Source: a virus (Duplodnaviria; Caudoviricetes). Taken from it: a DNA stretch of 54,882 bases. Position numbers and translations under genes: made by a program. Below the pieces are notes generated by a model that made no database searches, was not told where the DNA came from, and was given only the letters and a program-made list of their open reading frames with translations. Positions 18,397-54,053 of this stretch are shown piece after piece (positions within the stretch are counted from its first letter, which is position 1; each line of letters opens with the position of its first letter). Location: IMG/VR virus record IMGVR_UViG_3300017747_001103, positions 1-54,882 of that record. One strand, 5' to 3'.

Positions 18397-19374
18397 TTAC
18401 CTCACCAAGTTGCCGCTTGCATCATAAAAATTACCCTGACCATCATGGTAAGAAGCACCAGCAGGAATGTTTGAAGTAGCTGAAGGAGCCTCAGAACGAA
18501 TAGCACCACCCTCAGCTTGTTTAGTAACCGCAGATGGGCTCAATGTAGTCGTAGAGCCGGGGCTTGCAAATGAACCTAAAGCAGCCAGCAACCCAGTAAT
18601 CTGCGATAACGGGCTGTTTGTATATCCTGTAGAACCAACAGTCTGCTTAATTTCACCTGTAGGAATATTCAACCCTTGCATCAACTTAGAGTAGTTCTGA
18701 GCTGCAGTCATTGGGTAGTCGAGTTGCTTTTGACCTAAAGCCTGCTCTTGGCTGCCTAAGTCATACAAATTTTTCATACCAGAAGTTGCCGCTTGTTGCT
18801 GCTGTGAGCCCAAGCCACCTAAAACCTGACCTGCCTGCATTTGACGGTTAAGGTCAGCTTGGGCAGCCGTCATAGCGTTACCGTAGCCAGTATTTAAAGC
18901 GCTGTACTGCTGACCCATTAAATTAGATTGCATGTCTCTCAGCATGTTGCCAGTAGCATTGAACTGACGCTGTGATCCAAAAGAGCCCATGCCACCCGCT
19001 GCGCCTTGCATTGCAGGCAGAAGGTTTTCATTAATCTGCCGACCCTGCAAACGGCCCATCTCGTCCACCACATTTTGGGTGTACGGGTTCATGTAGTTGC
19101 CTACAATCTGATTAGCGCCTGTAGTGCCAGACTGAGCAGCCAAGTCAGCGCCTGCGCCCATAGTACCAAGACCAGAAAAAGCAGTCTGTGGAGCCATTGA
19201 CATAGCCTGTTGTTGCAGAGGTGAGAACCCAGCAACACCACCCATCTGAACGCCTGCCTGACCTAAGTTAGCTATGTCCTGAAGGTAATTAGTATAGAAC
19301 TCAGGCGCTGTCGTCTGAGCTTGGGCGGTACTAGTAATTGACGGTAGTACATCACCTTGGAAAATATCAGCCAT
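18397..19374 (-). CDS. Putative ejection/pilot protein
   Basis: Q/G/A-rich; VAGFSPLQQQA, YMNPYTQNVV, GSFGSQR. Confidence 0.65.
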   Translation of the reverse strand: MADIFQGDVLPSITSTAQAQTTAPEFYTNYLQDIANLGQAGVQMGGVAGFSPLQQQAMSMAPQTAFSGLGTMGAGADLAAQSGTTGANQIVGNYMNPYTQNVVDEMGRLQGRQINENLLPAMQGAAGGMGSFGSQRQFNATGNMLRDMQSNLMGQQYSALNTGYGNAMTAAQADLNRQMQAGQVLGGLGSQQQQAATSGMKNLYDLGSQEQALGQKQLDYPMTAAQNYSKLMQGLNIPTGEIKQTVGSTGYTNSPLSQITGLLAALGSFASPGSTTTLSPSAVTKQAEGGAIRSEAPSATSNIPAGASYHDGQGNFYDASGNLVR

Positions 19375-20578
19375 TTTTGTTGCTCCTCGATTGAGCTGCC
19401 TTCATATATGCCAAGGGTGACTTAGCTGGTGGAGGTATTTTGTTAACAGGAGCCGAGCGCTTATGGGCTCGGATTTCTTCACGAAACTTGTCTAGTAGGT
19501 CGGAACCTGCCTTAGTTGACCCGTTACCCAACTGAGCAACAGTATCAGCATCAAACACGTACTCACCATCTGCAAGCATTGCAGGTATATCGTCAGACTG
19601 ACCATCGCCTTCACCTGTAACACGAGATCCATTACGGTAGTCATGACGACCCTCTACAACAGGAACGTGCAAGCCACCCTGCTTAGCTTCGCCGCCTTGT
19701 GCCATCTGATTAAGAATGTCCTGTGGGTTAACCACCTGACCAAACGTGTAATAGCTAGGGGCTTGAGCCTCACCACCGTCAGCCATTAAAGGCGTAGCCA
19801 TGCCGCCGTCTTTGAGCGTCCATACGCTAGGATAAGTAATGTTGTTTGATGTGTTTTGATTAGCTGCGGCATTAGTAGATTGAGTGTTTGTAGACCCTAA
19901 ATTAGTATATGAGCTTGGGTTGCTTCCACCAAGCCAATTAGTAAAAGAAGAGACTCCGGGGATTGCTTTCAAGAAACTACTTATGCCACTACCAGCACTA
20001 GATCCTAAATTGGTTAACCCTTGAATTGCATTATTAGTAGCATTAGAAGATGCATAGTCTTTACTCTCAGGCATGATGTAGCCCAACGCAGCACCTAAAA
20101 GAGCGCCCGTCATTGGGTCAATCGTATTCTCACCACGAGGCGTAATCGTTGGGTTAAATTGGGTATTTCTCCCAGTGCCTGCAGATGTGATTGACTGAGG
20201 TTGGGCATTCATCGCCATTTGAGGACGTGCAGTATATTGAGACAATGCGCCTTGCTGACCCATCCCCATAGGAATGCCTAACGCCCTTGCTAGTTCTGGC
20301 GTGATGTTTGGCTGTGTATCCCTAGCACCATATTCAGCATAAGGAACATAACGCCCAGTAGGAATTTGCGTCGTTCTAGGCGCAATATTCCCAACCTTGG
20401 TCATATCTACGCCCTGATTAACACCGCCGGGCGGTTCAATAGACGTCAGCAATTTGCTCATCAGAGCGCCAAGAGCAGCTCCTTTAGCCGTATTGCTGCC
20501 CATAAGACCCGTTAACGAGCCAAGCCAGTCTGTGCTTGAAGTTACTGCTGGGGCTGCTGTTGGGGTTGGATCTGCCAT
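19367..20578 (-). CDS. Putative internal virion protein with C-terminal GxGDGxSDxIPAxLxxGEYV domain
   Basis: GEGDGQSDDIPAMLADGEYVFDADTV, preceded by four xxxGG motifs. Confidence 0.65.
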   Translation of the reverse strand: MADPTPTAAPAVTSSTDWLGSLTGLMGSNTAKGAALGALMSKLLTSIEPPGGVNQGVDMTKVGNIAPRTTQIPTGRYVPYAEYGARDTQPNITPELARALGIPMGMGQQGALSQYTARPQMAMNAQPQSITSAGTGRNTQFNPTITPRGENTIDPMTGALLGAALGYIMPESKDYASSNATNNAIQGLTNLGSSAGSGISSFLKAIPGVSSFTNWLGGSNPSSYTNLGSTNTQSTNAAANQNTSNNITYPSVWTLKDGGMATPLMADGGEAQAPSYYTFGQVVNPQDILNQMAQGGEAKQGGLHVPVVEGRHDYRNGSRVTGEGDGQSDDIPAMLADGEYVFDADTVAQLGNGSTKAGSDLLDKFREEIRAHKRSAPVNKIPPPAKSPLAYMKAAQSRSNKNG

Positions 20579-20587
20579 AATTTTTCC

Positions 20588-23500
20588 TTATTGCCGTATA
20601 GAAACTAAACCACCACGCCTAGCTATTTTGGTACTAGAACGAGCAGCTATTTCTTCTGGTGTCATCATCGTAAACGAAACTGGGTATAAATCACCAATTG
20701 GACGTTTTGCCAACGGTGTGGTTACTGCTGTATAGCCTGCGGGGACTTGACTTAATCCACCTGTTGACACTTTACCACTACCAAAAGCCCCCGCCAATGC
20801 TGCTAAAACGCCTGTTATATCTGATTTGTTGTCAGTAGTAGTAGTGACTGGGGGTGTTACTGGCGGCGTAACAGGTGGAACATTCGGAGTTACGGTAGTA
20901 GGCGTAGTAACAGGAGTAGTAGTTACCGGTGTACTAGGGATTGCATTAACAGGCGGCGTAATAGGAATTAAATCGGTTATTGGTTTTGTAACAGGGGCTG
21001 GTTGTGTTGCAGCCGTTGTTTCAGTTTTAGGTACTGTTTGTGTTGCTGGAGTTGTCTCAGTTTTAGGTACTGTCTCTGTTTTAGGTGCTGTCTCAGTTCC
21101 CGGTGTTGTTGTAGGCGCTGTTGTTGGCACCGTTTCAGGCATTGTTGTAGGCGTAGTAGTAGGTGTAGTCGCTGGCGTTGTAGTAGGCGTTGTTGTTGGT
21201 GTTGTAGCAGGTGTTGTTGTTGGTATAGTAGTAGGCAGTACATAAGGCACAAAAGAAGGAGGTACTGCTGGATTTTTTACAGGCGCTGTTGTTGTATTTG
21301 GCAAAATTGTTGGCACAGTTGATGGATATTCTGGAGCAACTAAAGGCGTAACATTTGGTGGCACAAAGTTTTGCACCGCAGGGTTTCCATATTGGTCGTA
21401 CAGCGTGCCTGATTTATCAACATATAAACCAGAACCTTTTCCATCTTGTAATATTAACTGGCCATCTTTGCTAATAGATTCACCGGGAAGAATTTTTGTA
21501 AAAAGTTCAGGTACGTTATATTTCGCAACAACTTCAACAGGAGATAATTTTTTTGTATAGTCGTAAGTACCATCAGCAATTGGACTTAAAAATTGCTTCA
21601 TTTTTTCAGCCATTATTTGGTCTTCGTTTGTATTTTGACCAATATTGCCCGGTGTAACCATTGAAGCTATACCAACTAATCCATCTGCTAACGTATACAT
21701 ACCAGCCTGCCTCAATGCTTGTATGCTTGATTCAGTAGTAACGCTTCTTGCATACAAAGGGTCATTAGCAGCAGCTTGTAACATGCTTTGAGCTACTTTT
21801 TCTTGAGCCGCTCTTGTTAACTGCTGAATGTTTTCTGCAGTTACAGGCATAGCTTGAGCAACATCAATTTTTACTGATGGGTCAGCGTATGCTGAGTAAA
21901 TCATGTCTTTAATTTCAGTTGGAGTGTCGCTAGATAATTCTGGTGAGCGCAAAGTAATTAAATCTGATTTATCTGGTGTTGGTTCTGGGTATCTTGACCG
22001 CTCTACAATAGTAGCGGTTCCGGGGCCATCTACTTTTCCTGCAGCCTCACCAGCTTTTGCAGCACCAGTAATAATAGCCGGTGCAGCATTTTTAAGCGCC
22101 TCAGCAACATCACCACCATTAATAAGGGTCTGAGTAGCGATGTTTGATACGTTGCCTGCAGCGTTGACTGTTGCAGCTATAACTTTAGGGTCAGCACCTT
22201 TTACAGCGTCATAGACTAAATTTTGAGCCTGAGTGCCAACATACTGACCAGCTAAGCTAGTAGCTGCATTTTCTAAAGCGTTAGGGTCGCCAAGCACAGT
22301 ACCAGTAACGCCAACAGTAACGGCGTTAGCCAACATGTTAGTAACTTGCTGTGAGCTTGTGTTGGTTGCACGAGCAATTGCTTCTACTTTGCTTTGATCA
22401 ATACCAACCCTATTAAGAAGCTGCGTAGAGTTTCCTGCAAGTGCTGGGCCAACCGCACCAGTTAATGCCGCCTGACCTATATCACCGCCAGTAAGCCCTG
22501 ACGTAACCATATTTTGTATTGCGCCAGAAAGCATACTTACACCAGTAGCGCCAATAGTCTGAGCAAGCGTTACTGCAGGCACTCCCATTGTGAATGCCGT
22601 AGGAGCAACCGCAGCGCTTACTTGAATACCTCCAATGGCGCTGTTTAACATCCCACCTAATTGGGGGGCAAAAACCATCGCCGCCATTTGAATTAACGGC
22701 ATAAGCTCAGCCAACTGCCCTGACGCACCTGCGTGGTGTACTCGCTCCCCTTCGTAATAATTTACTATTGGCTCATTCTTCTCATTAAGAACAGGAGTAA
22801 GCACACCACTTTCGTTTGCCTTATATAAAATACCAGCATGGGGGGTGGCTTTGTTAGCACCTACATTTTCAATAGCATTAGCTACGTAGTAAAGGTCTTT
22901 TGTCTTTTCTGAAATGTCTGCATACAGAGCTTTTGTATCTAATGCTTGTTCAAATTCTTTTGTTTTTGGGTTTATTCTTGCTAGGTAAGTCTCACCAGTG
23001 CGCGGGTTTGTATATTCTGCAGAATTTGCTGACGTTGGTTTTTCAACTTGGCCATAAGCATATCCAGCAGGAACAAATTTTATTGGCATGGTATAGCTAT
23101 CACCATCGAGTCCTATTTGTTTTGCTGCTGTTAAATAATCATTGTCTGTTGCTTTTAGTCCTTTTGAATTTACTATTCCTGTCGTTGTTGAGCCGATTCC
23201 ACCAGTTCCATCGTGGTACGAGCCTGTACTCAAACCAAGTATGGCTGGGCCTTGTAAAAGAAGAGCGCTGTCTGACATCATGTTCCAGCCTTCTTGAGCA
23301 AACGCTGCCCTAGCTTTCCCATTGCCTTTTACGTTATTGCCATATCTAGCAACTATCGAATCAAACTTATCTCTGTTAAGAAGAGGCAGTCCTGTTGTTG
23401 GGTCAATATTAGAAAATAAACTAGCGTCACCACCTTGGAGTGCCAACTGTCTTGCTTTTGCTGATGCTGGTGTTTCTGGTGTAGATACTTGAGTACCTTT

Positions 23501-25102
23501 AAATTCAATACCATCAAAGTGCGGAGTTATTTTGCTTTTTACGTCATCCGTAAAGTCACCAGCATCAATCAGTTTGTTAAATTCACCAAACAAAGATTTT
23601 GCAGCAGTAACGTCTGAAGCGCTTGAAATGTCAGCAAGGTTTTCTCTAAACTGTTTAGCATATCCAACAACATCATTTGCGTAAGCGTTGTACGTTTGAA
23701 GATCAGGCTCTATTCCCTGTAAATTTTCATTATATTTATTTTCAGCTGTTTGTACTAAACCACTTTTTTGAGCAACTACATTGTCTTGAGCTTCTACATT
23801 TTTATATGCGGCAGAAGATAATGTGTCAGCAATCCCACTAAGCTTGGAGCCATTAACATCAGAAACATCTCTAGCAGCAATAACTTTGGGATAGAAAGCG
23901 TCACCAAGTTTATTCTCAATGGTTCCCATTGCCCTTTCAGCTGATTCAACATTAGCTTGGGCTACTGATTTGGCTACGTCTTTTGCTTTGTCTGCTTCAG
24001 ACTGAATTGAATCACGAGTTTCTCTTGTGGTGTCTACTAACCTTTGTGCGTTGTCATGATATTGGTTACGGGTGTTTTCTTCTTTTTCTCTAAGCGTGTT
24101 GTAATTTTTTTCAGCATTTTCACGAGCAGTGTTAGCTTTTTGTTCAGATTCTTGTTTTACTCGATTAAGTTCTCTTTCCGCATTATCACGAGATTGCGCT
24201 TGGCTTTGAATTTTATTATTTGCGTCACGCTCAACCTCTTCGCGTTTTTTATTTGCATTGCTTTGAGCAGTCTCAAAAGCTCGTTCTGCTTCAATTTTTT
24301 TATTAACTAAAGAATCCCATGAAGAGCCAGAACGGATTTCTGCATTATCTATTCTGTTTTCTGCTTCACGAAGGCCATTGCGTTTGTTTTCAATTTCACG
24401 TAGTGCGTCTTGATAACCGCCATTATCATTTAAGTGACGACCAGAATTTTTCCAGTTATCAAGGTCATTAAGTTTGTTTTGAGCTTCGTTAAACGTGTTA
24501 CGTTTATTATCGTAATCAGAGTTGTCTCTGAGATAATTTTCGTTCTCTGCTTTTTCTTTTGCTTTGTTGTATATTTCTTGAGAACCACGCAAATTGTTAA
24601 GTAGGTCTTGATACCCAGAATTTTGTTTTAAATAATTAACATTGTCATAGTCATGGACTGCCTTGTTATAGGCATCGTTAGCTTTACCTGACTTATCTAA
24701 AGTTGCTTTATATGCGTCACTCTCTTCAAACCATTTATTTGAATTTAAAAATGAATAAGCAGAGTTATATTTATCACGCGCAGATTTGTACTCTGAGCTG
24801 TCTTCTAAATATTTTCTATTGTCTAAAATGTCTTTAAGGTTTTTGTAATTTTCCAAAGACTTATTGTATGTATCTTTTACGGTATTGTAAGAATCTACGT
24901 TTAGGTAAGTTTTGTTTTCATAATCATTACGAATATTTTTTAATTTATTAGACTCATCGTTAAGAATTGATTTTAAATTATTGATTCCATCTTCAAGAGA
25001 CTTAAGACTACCTTTAGCCGAGTTGTACTTAGCCAAAGCAGACTTTGCCTTAGTGACGGCATTTTTAATATCATCAAGTTTTGGTAAGCCAGCAACTGCC
25101 AC
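20588..25102 (-). CDS. Large (1504 aa) putative internal virion/ejection protein
   Basis: N-terminal coiled-coil repeats, Gly/Ala-rich middle, Pro/Thr-rich tail, C-terminal RRGG. Confidence 0.65.
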   Translation of the reverse strand: MAVAGLPKLDDIKNAVTKAKSALAKYNSAKGSLKSLEDGINNLKSILNDESNKLKNIRNDYENKTYLNVDSYNTVKDTYNKSLENYKNLKDILDNRKYLEDSSEYKSARDKYNSAYSFLNSNKWFEESDAYKATLDKSGKANDAYNKAVHDYDNVNYLKQNSGYQDLLNNLRGSQEIYNKAKEKAENENYLRDNSDYDNKRNTFNEAQNKLNDLDNWKNSGRHLNDNGGYQDALREIENKRNGLREAENRIDNAEIRSGSSWDSLVNKKIEAERAFETAQSNANKKREEVERDANNKIQSQAQSRDNAERELNRVKQESEQKANTARENAEKNYNTLREKEENTRNQYHDNAQRLVDTTRETRDSIQSEADKAKDVAKSVAQANVESAERAMGTIENKLGDAFYPKVIAARDVSDVNGSKLSGIADTLSSAAYKNVEAQDNVVAQKSGLVQTAENKYNENLQGIEPDLQTYNAYANDVVGYAKQFRENLADISSASDVTAAKSLFGEFNKLIDAGDFTDDVKSKITPHFDGIEFKGTQVSTPETPASAKARQLALQGGDASLFSNIDPTTGLPLLNRDKFDSIVARYGNNVKGNGKARAAFAQEGWNMMSDSALLLQGPAILGLSTGSYHDGTGGIGSTTTGIVNSKGLKATDNDYLTAAKQIGLDGDSYTMPIKFVPAGYAYGQVEKPTSANSAEYTNPRTGETYLARINPKTKEFEQALDTKALYADISEKTKDLYYVANAIENVGANKATPHAGILYKANESGVLTPVLNEKNEPIVNYYEGERVHHAGASGQLAELMPLIQMAAMVFAPQLGGMLNSAIGGIQVSAAVAPTAFTMGVPAVTLAQTIGATGVSMLSGAIQNMVTSGLTGGDIGQAALTGAVGPALAGNSTQLLNRVGIDQSKVEAIARATNTSSQQVTNMLANAVTVGVTGTVLGDPNALENAATSLAGQYVGTQAQNLVYDAVKGADPKVIAATVNAAGNVSNIATQTLINGGDVAEALKNAAPAIITGAAKAGEAAGKVDGPGTATIVERSRYPEPTPDKSDLITLRSPELSSDTPTEIKDMIYSAYADPSVKIDVAQAMPVTAENIQQLTRAAQEKVAQSMLQAAANDPLYARSVTTESSIQALRQAGMYTLADGLVGIASMVTPGNIGQNTNEDQIMAEKMKQFLSPIADGTYDYTKKLSPVEVVAKYNVPELFTKILPGESISKDGQLILQDGKGSGLYVDKSGTLYDQYGNPAVQNFVPPNVTPLVAPEYPSTVPTILPNTTTAPVKNPAVPPSFVPYVLPTTIPTTTPATTPTTTPTTTPATTPTTTPTTMPETVPTTAPTTTPGTETAPKTETVPKTETTPATQTVPKTETTAATQPAPVTKPITDLIPITPPVNAIPSTPVTTTPVTTPTTVTPNVPPVTPPVTPPVTTTTDNKSDITGVLAALAGAFGSGKVSTGGLSQVPAGYTAVTTPLAKRPIGDLYPVSFTMMTPEEIAARSSTKIARRGGLVSIRQ
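20830..21300 (-). repeat. Pro/Thr-rich coding tandem repeats (PTTT; ETVPKT)
   Basis: 12-nt and 18-nt periodicity. Confidence 0.85.
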
Positions 25103-25104
25103 GA

Positions 25105-28877: not shown

Positions 28878-29507
28878 TTAGCTATCCATCGCAACAGCCT
28901 GACGATCACCCATACGCTGGACATCCTCAGTTTTAAGTGTCTGAATAATTTGCTGATACTGCGCCTGCCACATAGGTATGCGCTCATCGTTCTTTAAGAA
29001 CGGCATAGCCTGTAGCAAAGCGCCGTACAGCAGCGCTTGAGGTGCGTACTCAGTAAACCAGTTGGTTTGATTCGTGTCGTCCAGAGGCTGTAAGCGCTGG
29101 TAATACAGGATTTCAAAGGTATAAGCAGCCACAGGCGTCGGCGCTACTAGCCAATGTGTGTAGTCATAGTCTGCGTAATAGGCAGGAGTACCAGTAGCGG
29201 TTGCATCAGGCCAATATTCACGCAGATACTCATATTTGCGTAAGAAAACAGGTTGTCTTTCGCCAGAAACCACCACATTCATTGAGACTGTCTTGTGCCA
29301 ACGAGCTGGTTTTGCAATTATGGCTTCACCAATAACCATAGTGCTGTTATTTACAGTCAAGTTTCCAAGGAATTTGATTTCGCTGGCAATCACTTGCTCA
29401 GCTAACATAATAAAGGTAGGAATTTTGGCAAGCGTCTGGGAATCGGAGCGCTCCAAGTAGCTGGCTATATCATCTGCCAAAGACGTGTATGTCATTGAAG
29501 CTGCCAT
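28878..29507 (-). CDS. Head-tail adaptor (tail tubular A-like)
   Basis: IPTFIMLAE, GTPAYYA, VAPTP, TNWF...LLYGAL..A.PFLKND. Confidence 0.8.
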   Translation of the reverse strand: MAASMTYTSLADDIASYLERSDSQTLAKIPTFIMLAEQVIASEIKFLGNLTVNNSTMVIGEAIIAKPARWHKTVSMNVVVSGERQPVFLRKYEYLREYWPDATATGTPAYYADYDYTHWLVAPTPVAAYTFEILYYQRLQPLDDTNQTNWFTEYAPQALLYGALLQAMPFLKNDERIPMWQAQYQQIIQTLKTEDVQRMGDRQAVAMDS

Positions 29508-39860: not shown

Positions 39861-39870
39861 TTTTATCTCC

Positions 39871-40179: not shown

Positions 40180-40584
40180 TTACCACCCCGAGCAATTCCA
40201 GCGTTTCATAGATGCCCGTGCGCGTGAGCCGCGCTCAGAGCTTTTTGCTATAGGTTCCATCCGAGCACAGAAAGAGTTCTTGCGTGCACCACCTTGGGGC
40301 TGCGGAGCTTTTAAATCGCTACCAGTCTCTCTGTTGTACTTCGCACGACCCTTGGCCGTCAATCCAGCCCCCTGCTCCGCTGGTAGCTTCTCGCCTCGAC
40401 CTACGGAAAGAGAAGGGCCTCCCTCTTTTAATTTCGATGGGAGCTTCCCGAAGGCTTTTTTTCCTACGTTAGATTCTGTGTATTCGGCTGCTTTAGCTGA
40501 AGACATGCCAACTTTTTTAGCAACAGAAGGATTATGCTCAATAGCCTTCATCAACTTAAACTGTGCTTTGGATTTAGCAGGCAT
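40180..40584 (-). CDS. Small basic protein (MPAKSKAQ module and GLTAKGR...SFCARM module joined at KEGG)
   Basis: Recognisable basic phage motifs; probable start 40584. Confidence 0.8.
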   Translation of the reverse strand: MPAKSKAQFKLMKAIEHNPSVAKKVGMSSAKAAEYTESNVGKKAFGKLPSKLKEGGPSLSVGRGEKLPAEQGAGLTAKGRAKYNRETGSDLKAPQPQGGARKNSFCARMEPIAKSSERGSRARASMKRWNCSGW

Positions 40585-40586
40585 AA

Positions 40587-40802
40587 TTACCAACAAGATT
40601 TTTTAGCAGAACCGCCATTTTTCTTCTTGGCAGTTTTAGCAGACTCTACAAAGTCTTGTTTTGATGGCGCACCTTTGCTACCAGCTTTACGCATCTTTTC
40701 GCCAGAGCCTTCAGAAATTCGTTCACGTTTTGCATGAATATTTTCATAAAGACCACCGCCTTTCATTTTCTTTTCAGAGAATAACTTATCCACTATGGCC
40801 AC
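40587..40802 (-). CDS. Small basic protein (GLYxNIHAKRxRI family)
   Basis: MKGGGLYENIHAKRERI...KKNGG; start uncertain. Confidence 0.75.
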   Translation of the reverse strand: MAIVDKLFSEKKMKGGGLYENIHAKRERISEGSGEKMRKAGSKGAPSKQDFVESAKTAKKKNGGSAKKSCW

Positions 40803-40841: not shown

Positions 40842-41594
40842 TTAGTCTGGGTTCTTAATGAGAATACCACCCGCATACATACTGCAAGTAAGCGGGCCAC
40901 CAGCACTAGATTTGACGCAAAACTGCATGTCAGTTTTTTCGGTGTGAGCAATTTGAACAGTATAAGGAATCTCCTGTTTCTGCACGAAAACAGTCTGATG
41001 TGTCACAGTAATAGCGCCAGTTACGTTATCTTTGTTGTACTCTTGGGCAATCATATAAGCACTAGAAGTAAAACCAATAGCAGCGTCATATTGTACGTAA
41101 GACAGATAGAACGTATAACCTGCTGGAACTGTATAAATTGACATTTGCGTCTGACCAACACCGGGGTTGATCTGAGCGTAAGTCGTAGAGCTAATTTTTG
41201 CGGTAATGGTTCCAACATTGGTGCCGTTGGTCACATACATTGCATTGATTCGCAAAAACGAATTAGTGGTCGTTACATTAGTTGTGCCGTTTATCGCAAT
41301 AGTTTCATTTAACGGAACAAAATTAGCGCCACAACCTTCAATTCGTATGCTAAGTGCAGTCGTGTCCGATGCAGAACTGCTCACTAAAACCAAAGGGGCA
41401 GCAGATGATGGAGGCGTGTATAAACCGCCAGATTGTGTCTGACCTTCCCACATTGGGCCAGTTGCGGTATTTGCGATATTTGGGCTGTAGCCAAAAATTT
41501 CAATTCCAGTATGCCCATCTACTTGACCACGGGCTACTTGCAGCTCAAATGGCTCATACGCACCCTGACGAGTGGCAGAAGAATAAGTTCCCAT
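40842..41594 (-). CDS. Virion structural protein
   Basis: FELQVARG, IFGY, FLRIN, GQTQMSIYTVPAGYT; probable start 41594. Confidence 0.7.
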   Translation of the reverse strand: MGTYSSATRQGAYEPFELQVARGQVDGHTGIEIFGYSPNIANTATGPMWEGQTQSGGLYTPPSSAAPLVLVSSSASDTTALSIRIEGCGANFVPLNETIAINGTTNVTTTNSFLRINAMYVTNGTNVGTITAKISSTTYAQINPGVGQTQMSIYTVPAGYTFYLSYVQYDAAIGFTSSAYMIAQEYNKDNVTGAITVTHQTVFVQKQEIPYTVQIAHTEKTDMQFCVKSSAGGPLTCSMYAGGILIKNPD

Positions 41595-41606
41595 ATCAAT
41601 CCTCAA

Positions 41607-43175: not shown

Positions 43176-44090
43176 TTAGACGCCCGGTGTGCCGTACATA
43201 GCACGCCAGTCGGTGAAGCCAACTTGGTAACGCTCGGTTGCCTTGTAGCGCATCGAGTCAGTTTCAAAGTCACCTTCCATCGTCTTCTCAAGCTTACGAC
43301 GCATCAGGAGCTTCATGCCCTCTGGTGCATCAGTCTGTACCCACCATGCGGTGGAAGAAGTCAGACGCGACAATACTGCAGCGCCTTCATCCAACAGACC
43401 AATCGACTTGATTGGGTTGATGTCGTTGTTAGCGTTGCCGCTACGCAGAACAGACTTCAGGAGAACTTCAGCTTGGAACACGTTACCGGGAGCTACAACG
43501 ATTTGACGTGGAACCAAACGGATTTTCTTGCCATTGTTGTCTACCGCTTGACGGATCTGAATCAACATCTGTTCCAAAGAAGTCTGGGACAGGTTGGCTG
43601 CAGTAGTCAGCAAGTTCGACACAGTGCCATTGACGATTGGGTGTGAAGCTGAGTTCAGCTGTACACCGTCACCGCCGGGGTATGCAGAGTTAAACGCACG
43701 GTTCAATACGTTAGCCGACAGCGTCTCTTTAGTCTCAATCAATGACTGAGCTAAGTGACGAGCATAAACTTGACCAATACGGATGTGGTCGCCATCTTCA
43801 ACCAACACTTTGGTCAGCGCGAAGGCCAAACCGAAGACTTGGTAAACATAGCGCTGCAGGAACAGAACACCACCCTGTTGATACGATACTGGAGTACCGT
43901 CAGGCAGTTGTGGAGCTGCGCCAAAGCCATACAGAACTGGCTCTTCGTGGTAGTTACGCGGGATACCTTCTTGCTCACGGAAAACGCGTGACCATTCGTC
44001 GGTACGCTGATCGTAGACACCATCAAAACATTCATTCAGAATTGGTTCGACAATGCTACGAAAGTCGGTACTTCTCATTGGGGCTGCCAT
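43176..44090 (-). CDS. Major capsid protein
   Basis: EEPVLYGFGAAP, GLAFALT...ED, VLNRAF, GDGV.L.S.SHP, EGDFET...YKATERY..G..DWR. Confidence 0.9.
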   Translation of the reverse strand: MAAPMRSTDFRSIVEPILNECFDGVYDQRTDEWSRVFREQEGIPRNYHEEPVLYGFGAAPQLPDGTPVSYQQGGVLFLQRYVYQVFGLAFALTKVLVEDGDHIRIGQVYARHLAQSLIETKETLSANVLNRAFNSAYPGGDGVQLNSASHPIVNGTVSNLLTTAANLSQTSLEQMLIQIRQAVDNNGKKIRLVPRQIVVAPGNVFQAEVLLKSVLRSGNANNDINPIKSIGLLDEGAAVLSRLTSSTAWWVQTDAPEGMKLLMRRKLEKTMEGDFETDSMRYKATERYQVGFTDWRAMYGTPGV

Positions 44091-44705: not shown

Positions 44706-45248
44706 CTAGCCAGCAAAAGATGGCGCAGGCAACGGTTTGTCCAATTGCTCAATGCCCTCACCCTCAACTTGACCGAGTGCTCTACCTCGGCTATCACGTC
44801 CAACGGACTGCTCTGCTTGTAACTTGATCTTATTCGCTTCTTCCAGTGGTGCATCGTGATGGAAGTGCGCCATAATTTCTTGATACTGATCCATAGGGAT
44901 CTTAAACAAAAGCATTTCGTTACACGCAATGTATCCAGTATGTTCGCCAGCCTTTACACGGTAATTTTCAAACCCTTTTATATCCTCAGCTTGCACTGGG
45001 ACATAACCGAGACGAATCCGTTTGTCGATGCCGTCGTAACTATTGGTTGTTGATAACCAGCATAAATGCCAGCCGGGTATATCAGGTGCATTAGGCAAAG
45101 CGCTTTGTGTCCACTCATCTTTCCACATCTTTCGACGTTCTTCAGACGACACAAAAGTTTCTTCGGGTGCCTCACGAGCTGAGTCATGACTAACGCGAGA
45201 TGTTTCGCGTCCACCGGCAGAGAGAGATTTCTTTAAGCGAGAATCCAT
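44706..45248 (-). CDS. Conserved head-module protein
   Basis: LPNAPDIPGWHLCW...LGYVPV...LLFKIP. Confidence 0.75.
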   Translation of the reverse strand: MDSRLKKSLSAGGRETSRVSHDSAREAPEETFVSSEERRKMWKDEWTQSALPNAPDIPGWHLCWLSTTNSYDGIDKRIRLGYVPVQAEDIKGFENYRVKAGEHTGYIACNEMLLFKIPMDQYQEIMAHFHHDAPLEEANKIKLQAEQSVGRDSRGRALGQVEGEGIEQLDKPLPAPSFAG

Positions 45249-45250
45249 GA

Positions 45251-46240
45251 TTAACCCCTTTGATTACGTTGACGTGATTCCATTGCGTAGCGCTTTATCA
45301 TGCGGTTCCTTTTTTCAGGATCGTCCCACATGCCAGCATCTTTCATAGCAGTTACCTGCTCACGAGACAGAGTGAATGAATTTCCACTTCCACCTCTACT
45401 ACTCGACACTTCGCGCCCCGAACTGGTTACAACGCTTCTCGGACGGCGGTTTACTGGTTTCTCATCAGTGAAGTCAGTATAACGGTTAGGTAATACTTTT
45501 GACAAGCGGTTGTCAAGCTCTTCCCAATATTCTGAAGATTTTGGATCCCAACCCTCATCAGCAAGGGCTTGGTCTACAGTCATAGCTATGCGCGAGTCCA
45601 TGTCCTTAGCCTGCGCGTTGTACCAAGGGTTAGCCTCCATCCACTTTGCTGCGTACCGCTGCAGCATAGGGTCTTGCTCAATAGTTTGAGCTTTGTCAGG
45701 CGTAACCATGCGCTTCTTAACGCCCTCAAGGTTTTCAGACTGCTGACGAGCGTCGTACCACATCTCCTGAGCACTAGCTAACAGGTCTCCATCCATTGAC
45801 TCAGTGGCTTCCTTCATCTTGCGCTTTGCGTATTCAATACGCATTTGTTGATCCTCAATAGCCTTATCCATACGGGCTAAATCGGCACCAGCTGTCTTCC
45901 TCTCTACAACAGAAAGGCGCTCAAGTAGCTCTTGGTTCTGACGTTGCAGGTTTTGCAGGCGAACGTCTTTCTCAGTTGCAACTTGACGGTGATATTCCTT
46001 ACGAGCTTTGCGTTTATTGCGTTTAGCAGCACGCATAGCCTCAGCTTCAGGGTCTATGTCTCCAGTAGCGGCAATCTCAGCAGCTTCTGCCTGTGCATCA
46101 GCCTCGTCCTGCTCCTCTGGGGTAGCTGGAGCATTATCATCATCATGTATTGCCAGATCATCAGGCAGATCAACGGTTGCTGAACCGTCAACACCTTCCT
46201 TAACAAATAAGTCTGGCTCTTTATTAGCATCTGTACTCAT
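45251..46240 (-). CDS. Scaffolding protein
   Basis: Acidic N-terminus, coiled coil, W...NPWY, SSEYWEELD.RL; upstream of MCP. Confidence 0.75.
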   Translation of the reverse strand: MSTDANKEPDLFVKEGVDGSATVDLPDDLAIHDDDNAPATPEEQDEADAQAEAAEIAATGDIDPEAEAMRAAKRNKRKARKEYHRQVATEKDVRLQNLQRQNQELLERLSVVERKTAGADLARMDKAIEDQQMRIEYAKRKMKEATESMDGDLLASAQEMWYDARQQSENLEGVKKRMVTPDKAQTIEQDPMLQRYAAKWMEANPWYNAQAKDMDSRIAMTVDQALADEGWDPKSSEYWEELDNRLSKVLPNRYTDFTDEKPVNRRPRSVVTSSGREVSSSRGGSGNSFTLSREQVTAMKDAGMWDDPEKRNRMIKRYAMESRQRNQRG

Positions 46241-46671
46241 ACGAATGCCCTCATTTCTAATGGATTGCCCGTTACTCGGGTGATTACTTCATGGTCATTG
46301 AGAACCATAAAGAGAGCTGGATCTTCATCAGGCTGGCCATCTACTGGCACCTCCCAACGATCACCGCCCCACTTCGGAACGCGAATATAGTCGCCTACAC
46401 GAGCCCATGCCCCTTCAGGCCAGTCTTCCATCGTGTCGCGCTTCTTAAACGCCAGAGGGCCTATAGCAATAACCTTGGCCACTTGACCATTCCATTTTTC
46501 CGTTTCCCGAGTCTCTTCCACTAGGATAATTCCACCATTCGTTGTCTTCTTCTTAGTGCGACGAAGTTGTACAAGTATGCGTGCTCCGAGGGGTTCATTA
46601 CCGGGGTCTACAGTGGGGAAAGCCCACGCTATGTCAGCCTCGTTAGAAGCTACCGGTTCATTCATGTTCAT
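46237..46671 (-). CDS. groES: GroES-like co-chaperonin
   Basis: PLGARILV, TNGGIIL mobile loop, KVIAIG, VGDYI, LNDHEV. Confidence 0.85.
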   Translation of the reverse strand: MNMNEPVASNEADIAWAFPTVDPGNEPLGARILVQLRRTKKKTTNGGIILVEETRETEKWNGQVAKVIAIGPLAFKKRDTMEDWPEGAWARVGDYIRVPKWGGDRWEVPVDGQPDEDPALFMVLNDHEVITRVTGNPLEMRAFV

Positions 46672-47019: not shown

Positions 47020-47021
47020 GA

Positions 47022-49514
47022 TTAGCTCCTTAGGTTACGTTGTGCTGCCTCTTGCAGCGTTAAAGCAGTTTCCTGCTGTTCTTGACGCAGCTTCACCTCG
47101 TCTACCGTCAACTCGGCTTCCTTCATGCGTTCTTTTGTTAGGTTGTTCTCGGCGTTCATAGCCACTTCAACCTGCAACTTATCTTGCGACATCTTCATGT
47201 CTGCCTGATCTCTAGCAGCACGGCGTTGTGTCTCAGCCATTGAAGCCTGCAATACAGCGTTGGCTTCTGGGTCTTGGATCAATCCCTTCTGCTGATCTGC
47301 CTGCTTCTGCTGCATCTGAGCTAACAACTGACCTAACTGTTGCAGACTTGGCATGACCTGAGCAAATACCTGTTGGGCATCCATCTCAACGTGAGCTGAA
47401 GCTGCGGCAATCGTCTGGTCAATGCTCTTCTGCATCTTGCTTTCAGCATATTTCCTAAGATCAAGATCAGTTCCTTGGGTAACGTAGGCATTTGCCTGAT
47501 TTGTGTACCAGAGAAGCATGTGCTGCTTAATATGCTCAATCTCTTGGGGCAAGCACTTCTGGGCAAGCATAGGGTTACTACCAAAGATAGGGTCTAAGGC
47601 GAACTTCAGGTGCGTTTGTATGTGCGCTAGGTGGTCTTGGCTTGGATAAGCAAAGGATGGACGACCCAACGCCATAGCAGCGTTCTCATCAATCGCATTC
47701 ATCTCCGTTGGTTTGACTGCAGTAGGCATCAACTCACTAGGATTTGGCACTTTCATCTGTTTTAGAGCCCTTGAGTACACCGCCCTACGGTCAAACAGGT
47801 CAGGAGCTTCCTTAGCAAAGGCAATAACCGCCTGAGTCTGCGCCATACGCTGTGTTTCAGAGAAAATATGGGGGTCAGATACAGGAACCACGTCAGAATT
47901 GCGTTTAAAGTCCTCTCTGGTGATCGGCAGCTCGGCAACCATGTCACCACGGCGCTGGTCATCCAGATACCAGCGGTTAATACGACCCAAAACACGCAAA
48001 ACACGGGCTTGTGAGTCATGTAAACGCGCATGAATAGCTGAGAATACTGCAGCACCCTGCTCAATCAACGCTTGAGTAGTGCCTACAGGCGCATTAGAGG
48101 TGATGTCAGCGATCTTTTCCTCTGCGGTGGTCACTACCCCCTTAGCTGCGGTCGTAAGCCAGCCTAAAAGCTCCATAAGCACTGGAGAAGGTGGGTTAAA
48201 TGGCATAGGCATAGCGATTTTGCGTATGTCGTCAATACCGGGGGAGCCTTCCAACTCAATAACCTGCGTCACATCTATCTGATCAGACTGACCAGAGATT
48301 TTGCCGCCCTTCAACTTCATCATTGTGGCGCTGTTGTTGATGTGTGCGGTATCCAACAGAGCACGTAGAGCGCCAGTCAGAGCTGCAGACATGCCGCCAA
48401 TCAGATGAGGCAAGCCAATAGCATAGGCACCACGCCAAGGGATGAACTTAAACTCAATCAGCCAGTCCAGTTTGGTCAGTGTCTCGTCGCCTTCTTCCCA
48501 GTTACGGTACAAGCCAATGACTTCAGACGTCAAATCGTCAATCATCAGGATGTACGGGGCTAGTTCACCCTTGCTGCGGTCGTCATCCTCCATCTCCAGC
48601 CATGTATAGATGTGATAAACAGTACGAATACCGTCCACATTGTCAGACATGCTCTTGCCTTCGATCTTGTCGTTAGCCTTTTCTGGGCCTGATTGCTCAG
48701 GATCTAACGATGCACGCACCAAAGTAATGTCACGGTACAGGCCACGGTCTACTCGGCGCTTGAATTCAAACTCTGTGATCTCATGAACTTCCGTTACACG
48801 CTGTGCGGTGTAGAAGTTACCAGCCGCGAAGGGCAGGTAGACGTTATCAATAGGCACAAACTCAGCACATGGGCGCTTTTTCTGCTCGTCGTACCACATC
48901 TTCATGTACTGTGAGCCACCCAAAGGCAGCTGTGTCAGCAGTTGTTCCTGCTCGTCGCGGTACTCTTCGATCTGCTCAGTCAGCTGCCAGTTCATGTAGT
49001 CGCGCTTGCGCTCAGCTACCTCAACCTTCTCAGGCGTTGACTCACCTAAGACTTGTGATCTGACAGGGCCATCAGGTGGGAAGAGCTCTTTGATTGCACG
49101 GGAAGCAAAGTCAATACAGCCCTCAGCCATAATAGGATGCACAACCTTGGACGCACCATTGAAGTTAGCACCACCGGGGGCGTCATTACCCATACCAGTA
49201 CGGCGCAGGCCATCTTCATACTGCTTGTCACGTCCCTTGCGGTCTTCCTTGTCCTTCTCAATGTACTCAATGAACTCAAGGGCAAGGCTGCTAAGGTCTA
49301 AAGGGCTGAACTCTTCAGACAGGTTGGCGTAGTAGTCTTCATCATCTGATGGGCCTTTGAAGCCATTCATATGAACAACGACTGAGCCATCATCCATCTC
49401 TTCAAGTTCGCCCTCTTCTTCGTCTTCCATGTCGACGATAGCACCGCCATCAGGCGTTTTAGTCACTCCGTCTATAAAGCGCCCAAAGTTTGGGTCTACT
49501 GGCATTTCAGGCAT
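47022..49514 (-). CDS. Portal protein (P22-like)
   Basis: 830 aa; GASKVVHP, ELFPPDGPV, RDYMNWQLTE, APVGTTQALIEQG, C-terminal Q-rich coil. Confidence 0.9.
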   Translation of the reverse strand: MPEMPVDPNFGRFIDGVTKTPDGGAIVDMEDEEEGELEEMDDGSVVVHMNGFKGPSDDEDYYANLSEEFSPLDLSSLALEFIEYIEKDKEDRKGRDKQYEDGLRRTGMGNDAPGGANFNGASKVVHPIMAEGCIDFASRAIKELFPPDGPVRSQVLGESTPEKVEVAERKRDYMNWQLTEQIEEYRDEQEQLLTQLPLGGSQYMKMWYDEQKKRPCAEFVPIDNVYLPFAAGNFYTAQRVTEVHEITEFEFKRRVDRGLYRDITLVRASLDPEQSGPEKANDKIEGKSMSDNVDGIRTVYHIYTWLEMEDDDRSKGELAPYILMIDDLTSEVIGLYRNWEEGDETLTKLDWLIEFKFIPWRGAYAIGLPHLIGGMSAALTGALRALLDTAHINNSATMMKLKGGKISGQSDQIDVTQVIELEGSPGIDDIRKIAMPMPFNPPSPVLMELLGWLTTAAKGVVTTAEEKIADITSNAPVGTTQALIEQGAAVFSAIHARLHDSQARVLRVLGRINRWYLDDQRRGDMVAELPITREDFKRNSDVVPVSDPHIFSETQRMAQTQAVIAFAKEAPDLFDRRAVYSRALKQMKVPNPSELMPTAVKPTEMNAIDENAAMALGRPSFAYPSQDHLAHIQTHLKFALDPIFGSNPMLAQKCLPQEIEHIKQHMLLWYTNQANAYVTQGTDLDLRKYAESKMQKSIDQTIAAASAHVEMDAQQVFAQVMPSLQQLGQLLAQMQQKQADQQKGLIQDPEANAVLQASMAETQRRAARDQADMKMSQDKLQVEVAMNAENNLTKERMKEAELTVDEVKLRQEQQETALTLQEAAQRNLRS

Positions 49515-49526
49515 GATTCATCCTCT

Positions 49527-52500: not shown

Positions 52501-54053
52501 GACCCAATGATTCTGTTGGGCTCATATGCATCAGCAAGCCTGTCAACCTTGCTTTGTACGTTCTTAGCAGGGACTTCCGTTGACTTCCAGAACTCAGGCT
52601 CAGGCAAATGTTTTTGTCCCAAGCCGTATAAAGCGCCACCTTGTTGCTCAGAGTCTATGGGGAAACCTTCAAGCTCATCAAGAATCTTGTTTGATACCGT
52701 CTGATCACCGGGAAACGACACGATTATGTCGCCCTTAGTTGGGCTGTAGGTGCTCTCCTGAGCTACCGTGCCATAGGGAGTTAGTTTGTAGTTGAGCTTC
52801 TTGACTCGCTCCTGCTCTTTCATTGAACGCCCAGCAAGGTTCTTTGTGTCTTTCGCCTTACCAGTTAGGACGTGCTCACCAAGCATCTGCCTAGCAACAC
52901 GCTCAGCTTGCGCGTTAATGAAGTCGGAAGACATGTTTGCGCGTGGCAGAACAAGTGGCAGAGCATTGTCACCGCTATGCGTCAAAGCCTTCATTGCCTT
53001 CATTGCCTTCTTAGCAGCACCACCAACGCCCATCTTCTGGACGCCACGCTGCATTGCGCTATGAACTATCTCGTCTAAGTCAATTACGCCGCCCTTAGCC
53101 TTGTTGATAGTCTTTGCGATCTGCCCCAACATCTCAGCGCTAGGCGGTGGTGGGCTGTTTGACGTTTGGTTGCCAAAGTTGACATCAGTATTAAAAAAGT
53201 TAGGCATGTTTGCAGCGCCGCCCTCAACAGAGCCGCCCTCAGCAAAAAGTGGTGGTAGTTTACGCGCCTTAGTCCAATCAGGAATACGATCCTCTTTGTT
53301 CGTAAAGCGTTCTTCAGGTATAACTAGGGGCTCATCGCCTATTTGCTCTATCAACGCTTGCAGGTAATCTTCTTGGCTTCTGCGTGGGAATGGCTCACGC
53401 AGGTTCGCTCTTGGGAGCATACGCCATAATGTGTTCTCATCACCAAGCTCTTCTAACGCTACGTTGCGATGACGGCCTTCATGACCTGATACAAATGGCA
53501 ACTTACCTTTGTTCTTATTCAATTCAAGAAACGGGACATCTGAAGCGCCGCCACCACCGGGTGACATCTTTTGCATGTATGACTCTATTGCCGCACGATA
53601 TGGGTCTGTCAACGTAGCTGCATATTTTTGAAACTCAGCAGGGTTAGCAACCATCATGGCAGCTGCATTGTCGCCACCAAAAGCCTGACGCAAAGCCTCT
53701 TCTGTGTATTGATTCTCAAGGTTCTTGACCTGATCAGCCGCACGTTGCACACGCTTAGCGCCGTACTCGCCCTTACTCTGGCGTATAGCCTGCTCTACGT
53801 TTGATACCTTGCTGGGTATGATGACGGATGGCGCTTGAACCGCCTCATCCTCTTTGCCTAGCGTCTTCTTAGCCTTGGCTATAGTCTTTTTGCCCTTCTC
53901 AGTCGGCAGGGTATGAGGCGCATACGCAGCCTCCTGCGCTGCCTTCCTAGCCGCCATCTCAGCAGCTATAGCTTCTTGTGCCGCCCGACTACCAGCTGGC
54001 ATCTTTGACAGGAGTTCAGCAAGAGGGGCAGCAATCTTAGAATAGTTAGGCAT
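49527..54053 (-). CDS. Large polyvalent-type multidomain protein (ParB/Srx-like, unknown and PcfJ-like modules) with xxxGG linkers
   Basis: HEGRHR near aa191; EGDMMRHCVGG...IYTLRD.KGEPHVTIEV...EIKGKNN near aa1266-1370; lies between terL and portal. Confidence 0.7.
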   Translation of the reverse strand: MPNYSKIAAPLAELLSKMPAGSRAAQEAIAAEMAARKAAQEAAYAPHTLPTEKGKKTIAKAKKTLGKEDEAVQAPSVIIPSKVSNVEQAIRQSKGEYGAKRVQRAADQVKNLENQYTEEALRQAFGGDNAAAMMVANPAEFQKYAATLTDPYRAAIESYMQKMSPGGGGASDVPFLELNKNKGKLPFVSGHEGRHRNVALEELGDENTLWRMLPRANLREPFPRRSQEDYLQALIEQIGDEPLVIPEERFTNKEDRIPDWTKARKLPPLFAEGGSVEGGAANMPNFFNTDVNFGNQTSNSPPPPSAEMLGQIAKTINKAKGGVIDLDEIVHSAMQRGVQKMGVGGAAKKAMKAMKALTHSGDNALPLVLPRANMSSDFINAQAERVARQMLGEHVLTGKAKDTKNLAGRSMKEQERVKKLNYKLTPYGTVAQESTYSPTKGDIIVSFPGDQTVSNKILDELEGFPIDSEQQGGALYGLGQKHLPEPEFWKSTEVPAKNVQSKVDRLADAYEPNRIIGSHLAMGPMSNNFAMHFADANLRAIDWSKADPAKINMFDSIIAKGYKDPKTKEIITFPHWPGVADREAAMEVMKSDTALRKWFNNRMKVPKVTQPLGLPNGLDIQYAITEPFLRDMEINMTGLMTGELKPGALVEAAGNPHNTYSHRILGDAIGQQEVLTPFVISNPDAAQHIATTKDPSDFTGTIQKVFPHQLVDDQYINQFNEYRERIKQLTGKKKGGLAEGGIPEKRDVSQLFPLKWSADANLQKGRTGVWTDTNDVFTGAMSGLFNMLAGGLRGRVIGTAGIPGDIIEGMSDLEGALPAMERKPKGQTFPQTYKTPPAFKLPTMEDLDTILPSAGDSHEAKIAQELGQFMPLTGEELAPAGRALVASAKKLAPTAAEMALDIASKYGVDPRMNIIKPKGGNFLNNSSEFVPRRLKNETTIWNQDLIDKQNESLLRDGWLPELLPKLTPNQTTDLAVGKWIDKKLHPYIKNEMGTAEDPIRLGIERRAAEAEKLKEANQARLAKMEADIAKAKAAGKDTTLSEGDLEKAREKFADEEYIASQGLFHVTIPEHGWADYTEGSKGFGEGLRGKRERAGVQGEPLGTHPASKKWERAVDAEVKTQKVKQKLSDPDTLERNPWLTKLNPDDVVYDLDSYSDVSFEFRHMIDELKEAMDPASVLPKHLKITPKDLEKMTVDDVSALSGKISAWRNVQKTKSDLQVANNPATHTFKEYPENNPNGVSWRQIKRPEGYSDEEAEKFVRQATKYEGDMMRHCVGGAGHCEPLLNGEVEIYTLRDAKGEPHVTIEVEPNKYAPRHEEVQKYMALAEEEAKRLPNGYTSKDIEDIAINMAKKAMPSKILEIKGKNNRKPNPEYIPFVQDFVKSGNFSSVGDMHHTDLYDVAHHSLKDFIPQSFDASSSDRMIAIAAARRAGELKNGLMTREEWEPIVKKYLPQNKAQGGAVNMAESGVINLDDLVAQALSKNVTVNLDDMVHQALTKRFAKGGAAYNAI

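Follow-up and report, generated by a model that had tools for sequence, protein, structure and literature searches.

A Gly-Gly motif in linkers and C-terminal tails of presumed head-internal proteins of uncultured podovirus-like phages: a candidate packaging or retention tag

The stretch analysed here, the whole IMG/VR virus record IMGVR_UViG_3300017747_001103 (54,882 nucleotides, hereafter the window), holds a complete, circular, podovirus-like genome of 54.8 kb in which a short motif built around Gly-Gly recurs in late proteins. The motif has the consensus hydrophobic/Lys, Ala/Lys, x, Gly, Gly, x, Val/Ala/Ile, and Lys, Glu, Asp and Thr are tolerated at the first x. It is a lineage-specific short linear motif, located in disordered linkers and C-terminal tails of probable head-internal proteins. 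We tentatively propose, with a probability of roughly 40%, that it acts as a multivalent, uncleaved tag for docking and packaging, or for retention. The carriers are a large polyvalent protein encoded next to the portal gene (the pre-portal protein), a very basic disordered protein, DUF6321 proteins, presumed ejection proteins and, in many relatives, the scaffold (Table 1). Gene position, composition and charge, and analogy suggest that these proteins reside inside the head or are ejected from it.

Enrichment and conservation of the motif

The first-pass annotation of this DNA had described the pattern [KMFYL][AK]xGG, below called the strict pattern, in nine late proteins, and all nine open reading frames (ORFs) and every pentapeptide that it quoted are found where it placed them. 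Against a null of 2000 shuffles per protein, the 41 late ORFs together hold 26 strict sites, with 3.5 expected. The maximum among the shuffles was 10 and none of the 2000 reached 26, which bears out the predicted enrichment over shuffled controls. Five proteins account for 25 of the 26 sites, namely the 343-aa basic protein (13 sites, 0.57 expected), the 1508-aa pre-portal protein (6, 0.42 expected), the 403-aa presumed ejection protein (3, 0.15 expected), the 71-aa basic protein (2, 0.09 expected) and the DUF6321 protein (1, 0.11 expected, counted on the longest ORF, 40180-40596). Without these five, the late ORFs give 1 site with 2.2 expected. This last site lies in the fibre-like 686-aa protein (0.12 expected), which was not among the nine, and probably reflects chance; the remaining ORFs of the window have none. 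The other four of the nine, the 325-, 1504-, 97- and 102-aa proteins, do not match the pattern. Their respective QAEGG, ARRGG, NKHGG and IKKGG are present but fall outside it, so they can be counted as carriers only in an extended sense.

Two limits apply to these counts. The 41 early and middle ORFs hold 0 strict sites with 0.68 expected; the earlier statement that the motif is rare in early proteins is correct as a count, but the contrast between early and late genes carries no weight alone because less than one copy is expected in the early ORFs. In addition, the pattern was chosen after looking at the proteins, so that the enrichment in the window is partly built in. Two checks that do not rest on the choice of pattern nevertheless hold: a position that the pattern leaves free is also conserved, and 80 related loci have the motif in matching protein classes. 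The free position is the second residue after Gly-Gly, which is Val, Ala or Ile at 19 of the 26 window sites, compared with a background of 21.8%; among unique sites of relatives the share is 81% in one set of 275 and 71% in another of 301.

The related loci come from a scan of IMG/VR with a portal profile, which matched 599 stretches, 590 of them encoding a portal relative. The best 80 of these 590 loci, with portal identities of 60-97%, were analysed, and their ORFs were classed by BLAST similarity to window proteins or by position, independently of motif content. The basic protein class holds 336 strict sites with 21.1 expected, and all 29 members are carriers. The pre-portal class holds 284 (28.5 expected; carriers 71 of 77), the DUF6321 class 27 (3.3 expected; 19 of 22) and the scaffold class 18 (1.2 expected; 18 of 52). 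Counts stay at or below expectation in the portal class (6 sites in 71 relatives, 7.2 expected), the capsid protein class (0 in 35 relatives, 1.8 expected), and the terminase (1, 3.9 expected), GroES-like (0, 1.3 expected) and adaptor (0, 0.8 expected) classes. Unassigned ORFs show 57 sites with 17.1 expected, and therefore some carriers are still unclassified. In a second scan of IMG/VR, 75 homologues of the 403-aa protein were found to hold 154 sites (24.6 expected), and their 704 neighbouring ORFs 62 (57.0 expected). The conservation among related phages by which the first-pass annotation had proposed to judge the motif is thus observed.

The metagenomic phage MW202545.1, the closest relative in GenBank, holds 21 sites in syntenic proteins (4.6 expected). 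No enrichment is found in Caulobacter phage RW (2 sites, 3.5 expected) or Roseobacter phage CRP-902 (3 sites, 3.4 expected). Each of these two phages encodes homologues of the portal, capsid, scaffold-like and GroES-like proteins, and in both the pre-portal giant and the basic protein are absent. The capsid protein of RW is 76% identical to that of the window, and all motif-bearing proteins are missing from RW. A tblastn search of a phage collection with the basic protein gave no match, which is not evidence of absence since MW202545.1, part of that collection, encodes a homologue; a low-complexity filter probably hid it. The 254-aa protein encoded beside the basic protein is common to the window and MW202545.1 and missing from RW and CRP-902. 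As an obligatory partner of the motif it was rejected, since of the 29 loci with the basic protein only 8 encode it.

Placement in linkers and C-terminal tails

BLAST coverage divides the 1508-aa pre-portal protein into blocks at residues ~76-270 (block A), 365-730 (block B) and 790-1400, with motif-bearing linkers between and after them. Its strict sites begin at residues 270, 318, 732, 737, 1454 and 1498. An AlphaFold2 model of residues 226-830, built on an 18-row alignment, shows a confident fold at 366-732, where most 10-residue blocks have a predicted local distance difference test score (pLDDT) above 88, flanked by residues 239-360 and 733-830 with scores mostly below 50. The sites at 270, 318, 732 and 737 and a loose MGVGG fall in the low-pLDDT segments; a Gly-Gly at 472 that is not part of a motif lies inside the fold. 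The order of the blocks is shuffled between relatives, and the motif travels with their ends. Block A always ends in LPxx-Y/F-A-E/K-GG, and block B always in TGKKKGG, often with a second copy 8 residues on. Internal ends of BLAST high-scoring segment pairs lie within 20 residues of a site in 1598 of 4906 cases, compared with 538 expected by area, the ends not being independent of one another.

The C-terminus is the second preferred place. When only the final 30 residues are considered, 48 of the 65 pre-portal proteins (2.1 expected) and 27 of the 29 members of the basic protein family (4.6 expected) contain a loose form of the motif, compared with 13 of 542 control ORFs (10.0 expected). The peptides that follow the last Gly-Gly form a few recurring classes, which are mostly C-terminal (24 of 33, 9 of 9, 13 of 16 and 5 of 5), and one class is common to the 1504-aa protein and to unrelated polyvalent proteins. 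The BLAST blocks, the segment ends, the structural model, in which the motifs occupy low-confidence linkers flanking a fold, and the C-terminal counts all agree with the earlier claim that the motif sits at domain boundaries or near C-termini.

Placement in low-pLDDT linkers might also point to a passive structural hinge, a Gly-Gly turn inherited with each cassette that needs neither partner nor cut and lends flexibility for packing or for threading through the portal channel. The alternating hydrophobic residues around Gly-Gly and the 8-residue period of the doublets would fit a minimal beta-hairpin, and as the cassettes own their trailing motif, common descent explains part of its recurrence. 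However, a hinge offers no reason for retention at the extreme C-terminus of the pre-portal proteins and in stand-alone modules, described below, and because of this retention the motif is not a mere linker. It also leaves unexplained why one seven-residue pattern is shared after unrelated domains and in unrelated proteins, and why about 13 copies occur in a protein without folded domains that would need connecting. We regard a hinge without further function as unlikely.

The pre-portal protein itself belongs to the known class of polyvalent proteins, as its domain variability and gene position indicate. Among the pre-portal proteins of 31 diverse relatives, ART-PolyVal domains are found in 11, PcfJ in 10 and LPD23 in 2, and the sole Pfam match of the 1508-aa protein is to PcfJ, below the cut-off (22.1 versus 25 bits). 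The gene lies between those of the large terminase and the portal, and in 62 loci this position is occupied by an ORF of at least 300 aa that ends less than 400 nt before the portal gene. None of the domain blocks occurs in every pre-portal protein, and a Foldseek search of the Protein Data Bank (PDB) with the fold of block B gave 0 matches at E ≤0.001. Block A (window positions 53244-53826) contains a GHEGRHR string that is invariant in 10 sequences, and has no family match. It could be a nuclease-like or metal-binding domain; as for a zincin peptidase, which the HExxH-like string might suggest, no peptidase family matched.

The 343-aa basic protein carries the most copies of the motif. This protein has an isoelectric point (pI) of 10.3 and a net charge of +37, ends in KKRGG-SAC, has a pLDDT of 0.40 in the ESM Atlas and matches no Pfam or PHROG family. 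The N-terminal 25 residues of its family are nearly invariant, and a profile of this region matched 296 representative clusters among 1.84 billion proteins. Single disordered basic proteins hold 13-20 sites, and 25 of 29 family members close with ...GG-x-x-C, the Cys being the last residue. The main carriers of the window have net charges of +37, +18, +10, +8 and +4 and pI values of 9.5-10.4. The motif might accordingly be a DNA-contact element of histone-like internal proteins, in which Lys-rich Gly-Gly repeats neutralise or organise DNA and other occurrences are incidental. Lys is indeed the commonest residue at positions -2 and -1, counted from the first Gly, in the basic protein family. 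Sites in polyvalent proteins, however, have Ala at -2 in 66% and often Asp or Glu at -1, the sites of the scaffold are surrounded by strongly acidic sequence, and charge cannot explain the hydrophobic residue at -3 or the Val at +3. This explanation is therefore very improbable.

The small basic proteins show how the motif separates modules. The 71-aa protein contains module 2, which is homologous to the middle of 172-196-aa proteins of relatives, and its neighbour contains module 1 and module 3, the latter being DUF6321 (PF19846; residues 76-133 of the ORF 40180-40596, E 4.5e-14, 53.3 bits, cut-off 28.5). The likely start of this neighbour is the ATG at 40584, although its longest ORF reaches 40596. 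Relatives have modules 1+2+3, 1+3, 2+3 or 3 alone, with ORFs that start just past a Gly-Gly, and the window splits the modules between two genes, one for module 2 and one for modules 1 and 3. Stand-alone modules of this family retain the motif. The 102-aa protein, which has no family match, is paralogous in its C-terminal part to the 97-aa protein, for which one homologue was found among the 80 loci. All four small basic proteins of the window have Trp as the last residue, and the DUF6321 proteins of relatives end in ...RWxC(P/S)GW or ...RWKC.

DUF6321 and module 1 also occur outside this clade. DUF6321 forms the C-terminus of ~520-aa proteins of T4-like cyanophages (Synechococcus phage S-P4 gp060; S-CRM01 g34), one of which is annotated as a structural protein and one of which is encoded just upstream of the large terminase gene. 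The motif system does not extend to these proteins, as each has only 0-1 strict sites. Module 1 matches genes annotated, by annotation only, as structural in jumbo phages of E. coli (Escherichia phage 121Q).

The 329-aa scaffold-like protein appears from its position, composition and sequence to be the scaffold. In relatives the scaffold motif is a single site near the N-terminus, within a strongly acidic region; the window protein has only a degenerate form, IAATGDID. The N-termini of the portal and the scaffold share a second short motif, acidic residues followed by D-G-S/G-A-x-V-x-hydrophobic, which reads ELPDGSAIV-x-M within the first 60 aa of the portal and E-x-DGSAVVDLP within the first 30 aa of the scaffold-like protein. 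It is nearly universal in the clade and is part of a four-way consensus that includes RW and CRP-902, both of which are without the Gly-Gly motif. It may represent a separate, older assembly signal.

In the presumed ejection module, the motif ranges from clear to marginal. The sites of the 403-aa protein lie in a linker ahead of its conserved C-terminal domain. This domain (residues ~305-360, GDGQSDDIPAMLADGEYVFDA...) has weak matches to several tape-measure PHROGs, is duplicated in the MW202545.1 homologue and seems to be a short domain that is widespread among ejected or tail-internal proteins. The 1504-aa protein has no Pfam or PHROG family. A tail of its RRGG-LVSIRQ type also closes many pre-portal proteins of relatives, and its counterparts, the ORFs upstream of the 403-aa homologues, end in GG-L-x-x-hydrophobic in 14 of 62 cases, with 0.2 expected. 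The weakest member is the 325-aa protein, with 0 strict sites where 0.18 are expected, 0-2 in its homologues, and a weak match to the PHROG "DNA ejection protein" (E 0.0013).

Docking tag or processing site

We favour a packaging or retention tag because it would explain together the C-terminal retention, the shared terminal peptides, the copy behind every shuffled domain and the presence of the motif in the scaffold. Exposed copies would each make a weak contact with a conserved component inside the procapsid, which may be the capsid protein, the scaffold or the portal. A domain cassette that brings its own copy would remain packageable after shuffling, and the last copy together with the short C-terminal peptide would form a terminal anchor. 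The capsid protein is a candidate docking receptor, since its mean column identity is 94% (36 sequences) and the median BLAST identity of the portal is 63%; by the latter measure the capsid protein reaches 92% and other head proteins 44-70%. A complex prediction for the capsid protein and residues 1-75 of the basic protein gave no answer, with a score of 0.00 in both runs and no controls, and is counted neither way. A resemblance of the motif to the GroES mobile loop (KKTTNGGIILV in the phage GroES-like protein) was set aside, as the motif is polar where GroES has its third hydrophobic residue.

Comparable tags are known. The capsid-targeting sequence of T4 and the cargo-loading peptides of encapsulins are short terminal peptides that direct unrelated cargo into shells that consist of HK97-fold proteins or are assembled along with them. 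Likewise, the present motif lies at the terminus of otherwise unrelated candidate cargo, and its C-terminal position resembles that in encapsulin systems. Unlike those peptides, it also occurs internally and in multiple copies, and it bears no sequence relation to them.

Several points weigh against a docking tag. The receptor is hypothetical, and binding is a supposition. The placement of the carriers inside the head is likewise a prediction from gene position, composition and analogy. The 8-residue doublets and the 13-20 sites per protein would fit a degradation substrate equally well, and conservation on either side of Gly-Gly is typical of protease subsites. Because RW has a 76%-identical capsid protein and no motif proteins, the presumed receptor is not specific to the system. 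Finally, the x position that tolerates Lys, Glu, Asp and Thr would fit a solvent-facing residue but also a loose hinge.

Some of these points lead to the alternative of a proteolytic processing site, in which a cut at or next to Gly-Gly frees polyvalent domains, trims C-terminal peptides and chops the basic protein into DNA-binding peptides. Modules that the motif links within one protein in some phages have genes of their own in others, starting just past Gly-Gly; the motif is kept ahead of short C-terminal tails; the many sites in one disordered basic protein resemble a precursor; and 18 of 52 scaffold relatives have a lone site near the N-terminus. In addition, conservation is two-sided, with -3 and -2 fixed by the pattern and the free +3 position occupied by Val, Ala or Ile in 71-81%. 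Precedents exist. In SPN3US, nine head proteins share a motif at which gp245 cuts, and some propeptides have several such sites (PMC10052503); in adenovirus, precursors of core, scaffold and coat proteins are cut by the viral protease at (M/I/L)XGG|X and (M/I/L)XGX|G (PMC4246237). Polyvalent proteins have been proposed to be packaged and delivered with the DNA and perhaps processed, the processing being ascribed to zincin-like peptidase domains within the proteins themselves (Iyer, Burroughs, Anand, de Souza and Aravind 2017, PMC5512222).

The search for a protease gave no support to processing. No peptidase family was found in the 61 window ORFs by Pfam and/or PHROG searches, or in the pre-portal proteins of the 31 relatives. 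In a six-frame search of the window with E up to 1, the families C48, C5, Mu-like_Pro, S78, S77, S49, C39 and M23 were all unmatched, including the clan CE cysteine proteases (PF00770, PF02902) and the C39 peptidase (PF03412). The earlier remark that no canonical prohead protease is recognisable therefore stands for the Pfam and PHROG scans and the six-frame family searches. A protease hidden in the pre-portal proteins could not serve the whole clade because no block of these proteins is universal. In the head module the scaffold is a protein of its own and no protease was found, and the homologous head module of RW is without motif proteins.

One head-module protein was considered as a hidden cysteine protease. 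The 180-aa protein has H61, C109 and H130 invariant in 40 sequences, and its AlphaFold2 model has a mean pLDDT of 70.3. Foldseek against the PDB returned 0 matches at E ≤0.001, a PDB sequence-profile search gave one match at E 0.88, and BFVD returned solely uncharacterised phage proteins. The candidate was rejected, as no protease-like fold is seen and the protein is also present in the motif-less RW.

The register of the motif differs as well. Hydrophobic residues lie at P5 and not at P4 as in the sites of adenain, the adenovirus protease. Taken together, these results make processing less likely than a tag, although it remains a serious rival, and they divide the interpretation that the first-pass annotation had offered, in which one recognition signal directs proteins into the prohead and/or has them cut. 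A specific, conserved signal, as opposed to Lys- and Gly-rich noise, is found in linkers and C-termini and is confined to proteins that are plausibly head-internal or ejected. For cutting, no protease of the searched families is encoded and the sites do not have the adenovirus-type (M/I/L)XGG register.

A wider version of processing would be an adenovirus-like maturation, in which an unrecognised Gly-Gly-directed protease cuts the shared motif, releases polyvalent effector domains, dismantles the scaffold and breaks down a histone-like precursor, whose small basic fragments remain on the packaged DNA. The C-terminal Cys peptides would then be cofactors or anchors like pVIc. Such a protease might have a new phage fold, the 180-aa protein (His61, Cys109, His130) being one example, or might be a recruited host enzyme. 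As in adenovirus, Gly-Gly follows a hydrophobic residue, and the sites occur in histone-like core, scaffold and internal proteins. In adenovirus pVI a site is followed by a short, basic peptide at the C-terminus in which a Cys is conserved (PMC4246237); here 25 of 29 basic proteins have Cys as the last residue, shortly after a Gly-Gly. Unlike the adenovirus sites, the hydrophobic residue stands at -3 from the first Gly with Ala or Lys between, no C5 or C48 peptidase was found in the six frames, and the virus lineages are unrelated. We consider this explanation improbable.

Genome layout, known systems and significance

The window ends in an identical terminal repeat of 123 bases (positions 1-123 equal 54760-54882), which gives a circle of 54,759 bp. 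With the repeat removed, the large terminase is a single ORF of ~479 aa that spans the junction; the two terminase pieces in the window are an artefact, because the circle was opened inside this gene. Family searches with Pfam and PHROGs place the late genes on the minus strand in a podovirus-like order (Table 1). Homologues of the GroES-like protein are annotated in RW, CRP-902 and DSL-LC05.

Table 1. Positions of the motif carriers and of other late-gene features in the window
Feature	Position	Strand	Description
Small terminase	1524-2051	minus	Family search
Block of large proteins	15633-25102		No assigned family; one with a weak "DNA ejection protein" match
Glycine-rich protein, 325 aa	18397-19374	minus	One loose site, QAEGG, then AI
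Presumed ejection protein, 403 aa	19367-20578	minus	Strict sites at residues 255, 265 and 292, plus AKQGG
Presumed ejection-module protein, 1504 aa	20588-25102	minus	Ends RRGG-LVSIRQ
Second SU10 adaptor family match	28878-29507		Strong, E 2.6e-27
Fibre-like protein, 686 aa	32850-34910		Three Laminin_G_3 (concanavalin-like) repeats, E 3.8e-60
Tail and fibre genes, lysozyme among them		minus	Downstream of the adaptor-like gene
Adaptor-like protein	38490-39563	minus	Weak SU10 adaptor match, E 0.0005, below cut-off; weak F5/8 type C match
Four small basic proteins	39567-40802	minus	The next four rows
Basic protein, 97 aa	39567-39860	minus	NKHGG, then AIKIPKTKV; ends SSNW; pI 9.5; outside the strict pattern
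Basic protein, 102 aa	39871-40179	minus	IKKGG, then RIKIPKTKV; ends SSNW; pI 9.8; outside the strict pattern
DUF6321 protein	40180-40584	minus	Module 1 (starts MPAKSKAQF), LKEGG, module 3 (DUF6321)
Basic protein, 71 aa	40587-40802	minus	Short lead, MKGGG, module 2, KKNGG, 7-residue tail ending in W
254-aa protein	40842-41606	minus	Between the 343-aa basic protein and the small basic proteins
Basic protein, 343 aa	41639-42670	minus	Glycine-rich, predicted disordered; 13 strict copies, 20 GG dipeptides
162-aa protein		minus	After the capsid gene, before the 343-aa basic protein gene
Major capsid protein	43176-44090	minus	Mu gpT-like, HK97 fold class; Pfam Phage_capsid_4, E 3.4e-11; no motif
180-aa head-module protein	44706-45248	minus	Function not assigned by family searches
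190-aa protein		minus	Beside the 180-aa protein in the head module; no assigned function
Scaffold-like protein, 329 aa	45251-46240	minus	Acidic N-terminus, coiled middle, basic C-terminus
GroES-like co-chaperonin	46237-46671	minus	Within the head module; Cpn10, E 4.2e-07, and PHROG co-chaperonin GroES
Portal	47022-49514	minus	Directly downstream of the polyvalent gene; PHROG portal, E 2.8e-15; strict motif absent
Polyvalent protein, 1508 aa	49527-54053	minus	Pre-portal; between large terminase and portal
Large terminase	Wraps contig ends	minus	Family search

Several known systems share single features with the one described here. The cleavage motifs of T4, phiKZ and SPN3US end in Glu. As in the systems of T4 gp21, phiKZ gp175 and SPN3US gp245, one short motif occurs in many head-internal or ejected proteins, sometimes in several copies. 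In those phages, however, an essential prohead protease has been identified and the propeptides are mostly N-terminal, whereas here no protease was found by the searches above, the sites are internal or C-terminal, and the motif has a Gly-Gly end. The double-glycine leaders of C39 substrates differ in a similar way, being N-terminal and served by a peptidase that the six-frame search did not find.

Like other polyvalent proteins, the pre-portal protein is large and multidomain, has a variable domain order, lies beside the portal and terminase genes and shows domains of that class in relatives. Unlike those of PMC5512222, it has no zincin-like peptidase domain that our family searches could find. 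A linker and C-terminal motif shared with small basic proteins and a scaffold is not met in the main text of PMC5512222, where the word "linker" occurs 0 times. A search of the literature on polyvalent, DUF6321 or internal virion proteins, which did not extend to supplements (including that of PMC5512222), found no published description of the motif and no papers on DUF6321. Targeting peptides and shared cleavage motifs, like polyvalent proteins, are already known, and it is one motif common to all these carrier classes that we did not find in print.

The loading of cargo into phage heads, including polyvalent effectors, anti-defence enzymes and internal proteins, is understood for few model phages. 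In the clade studied here, which is uncultured and large (590 IMG/VR stretches with a portal relative), one seven-residue motif marks the whole presumed cargo set. A role as packaging tag would account for the ability of polyvalent proteins to swap domains freely and keep being packaged, and the tag would be portable, so that foreign proteins could be loaded into phage heads with it. A role as cleavage site would indicate that a protease has gone unrecognised and that phages have their own counterpart of core maturation in adenovirus. Under either reading, the motif may predict the virion cargo of this clade directly from genome sequences.

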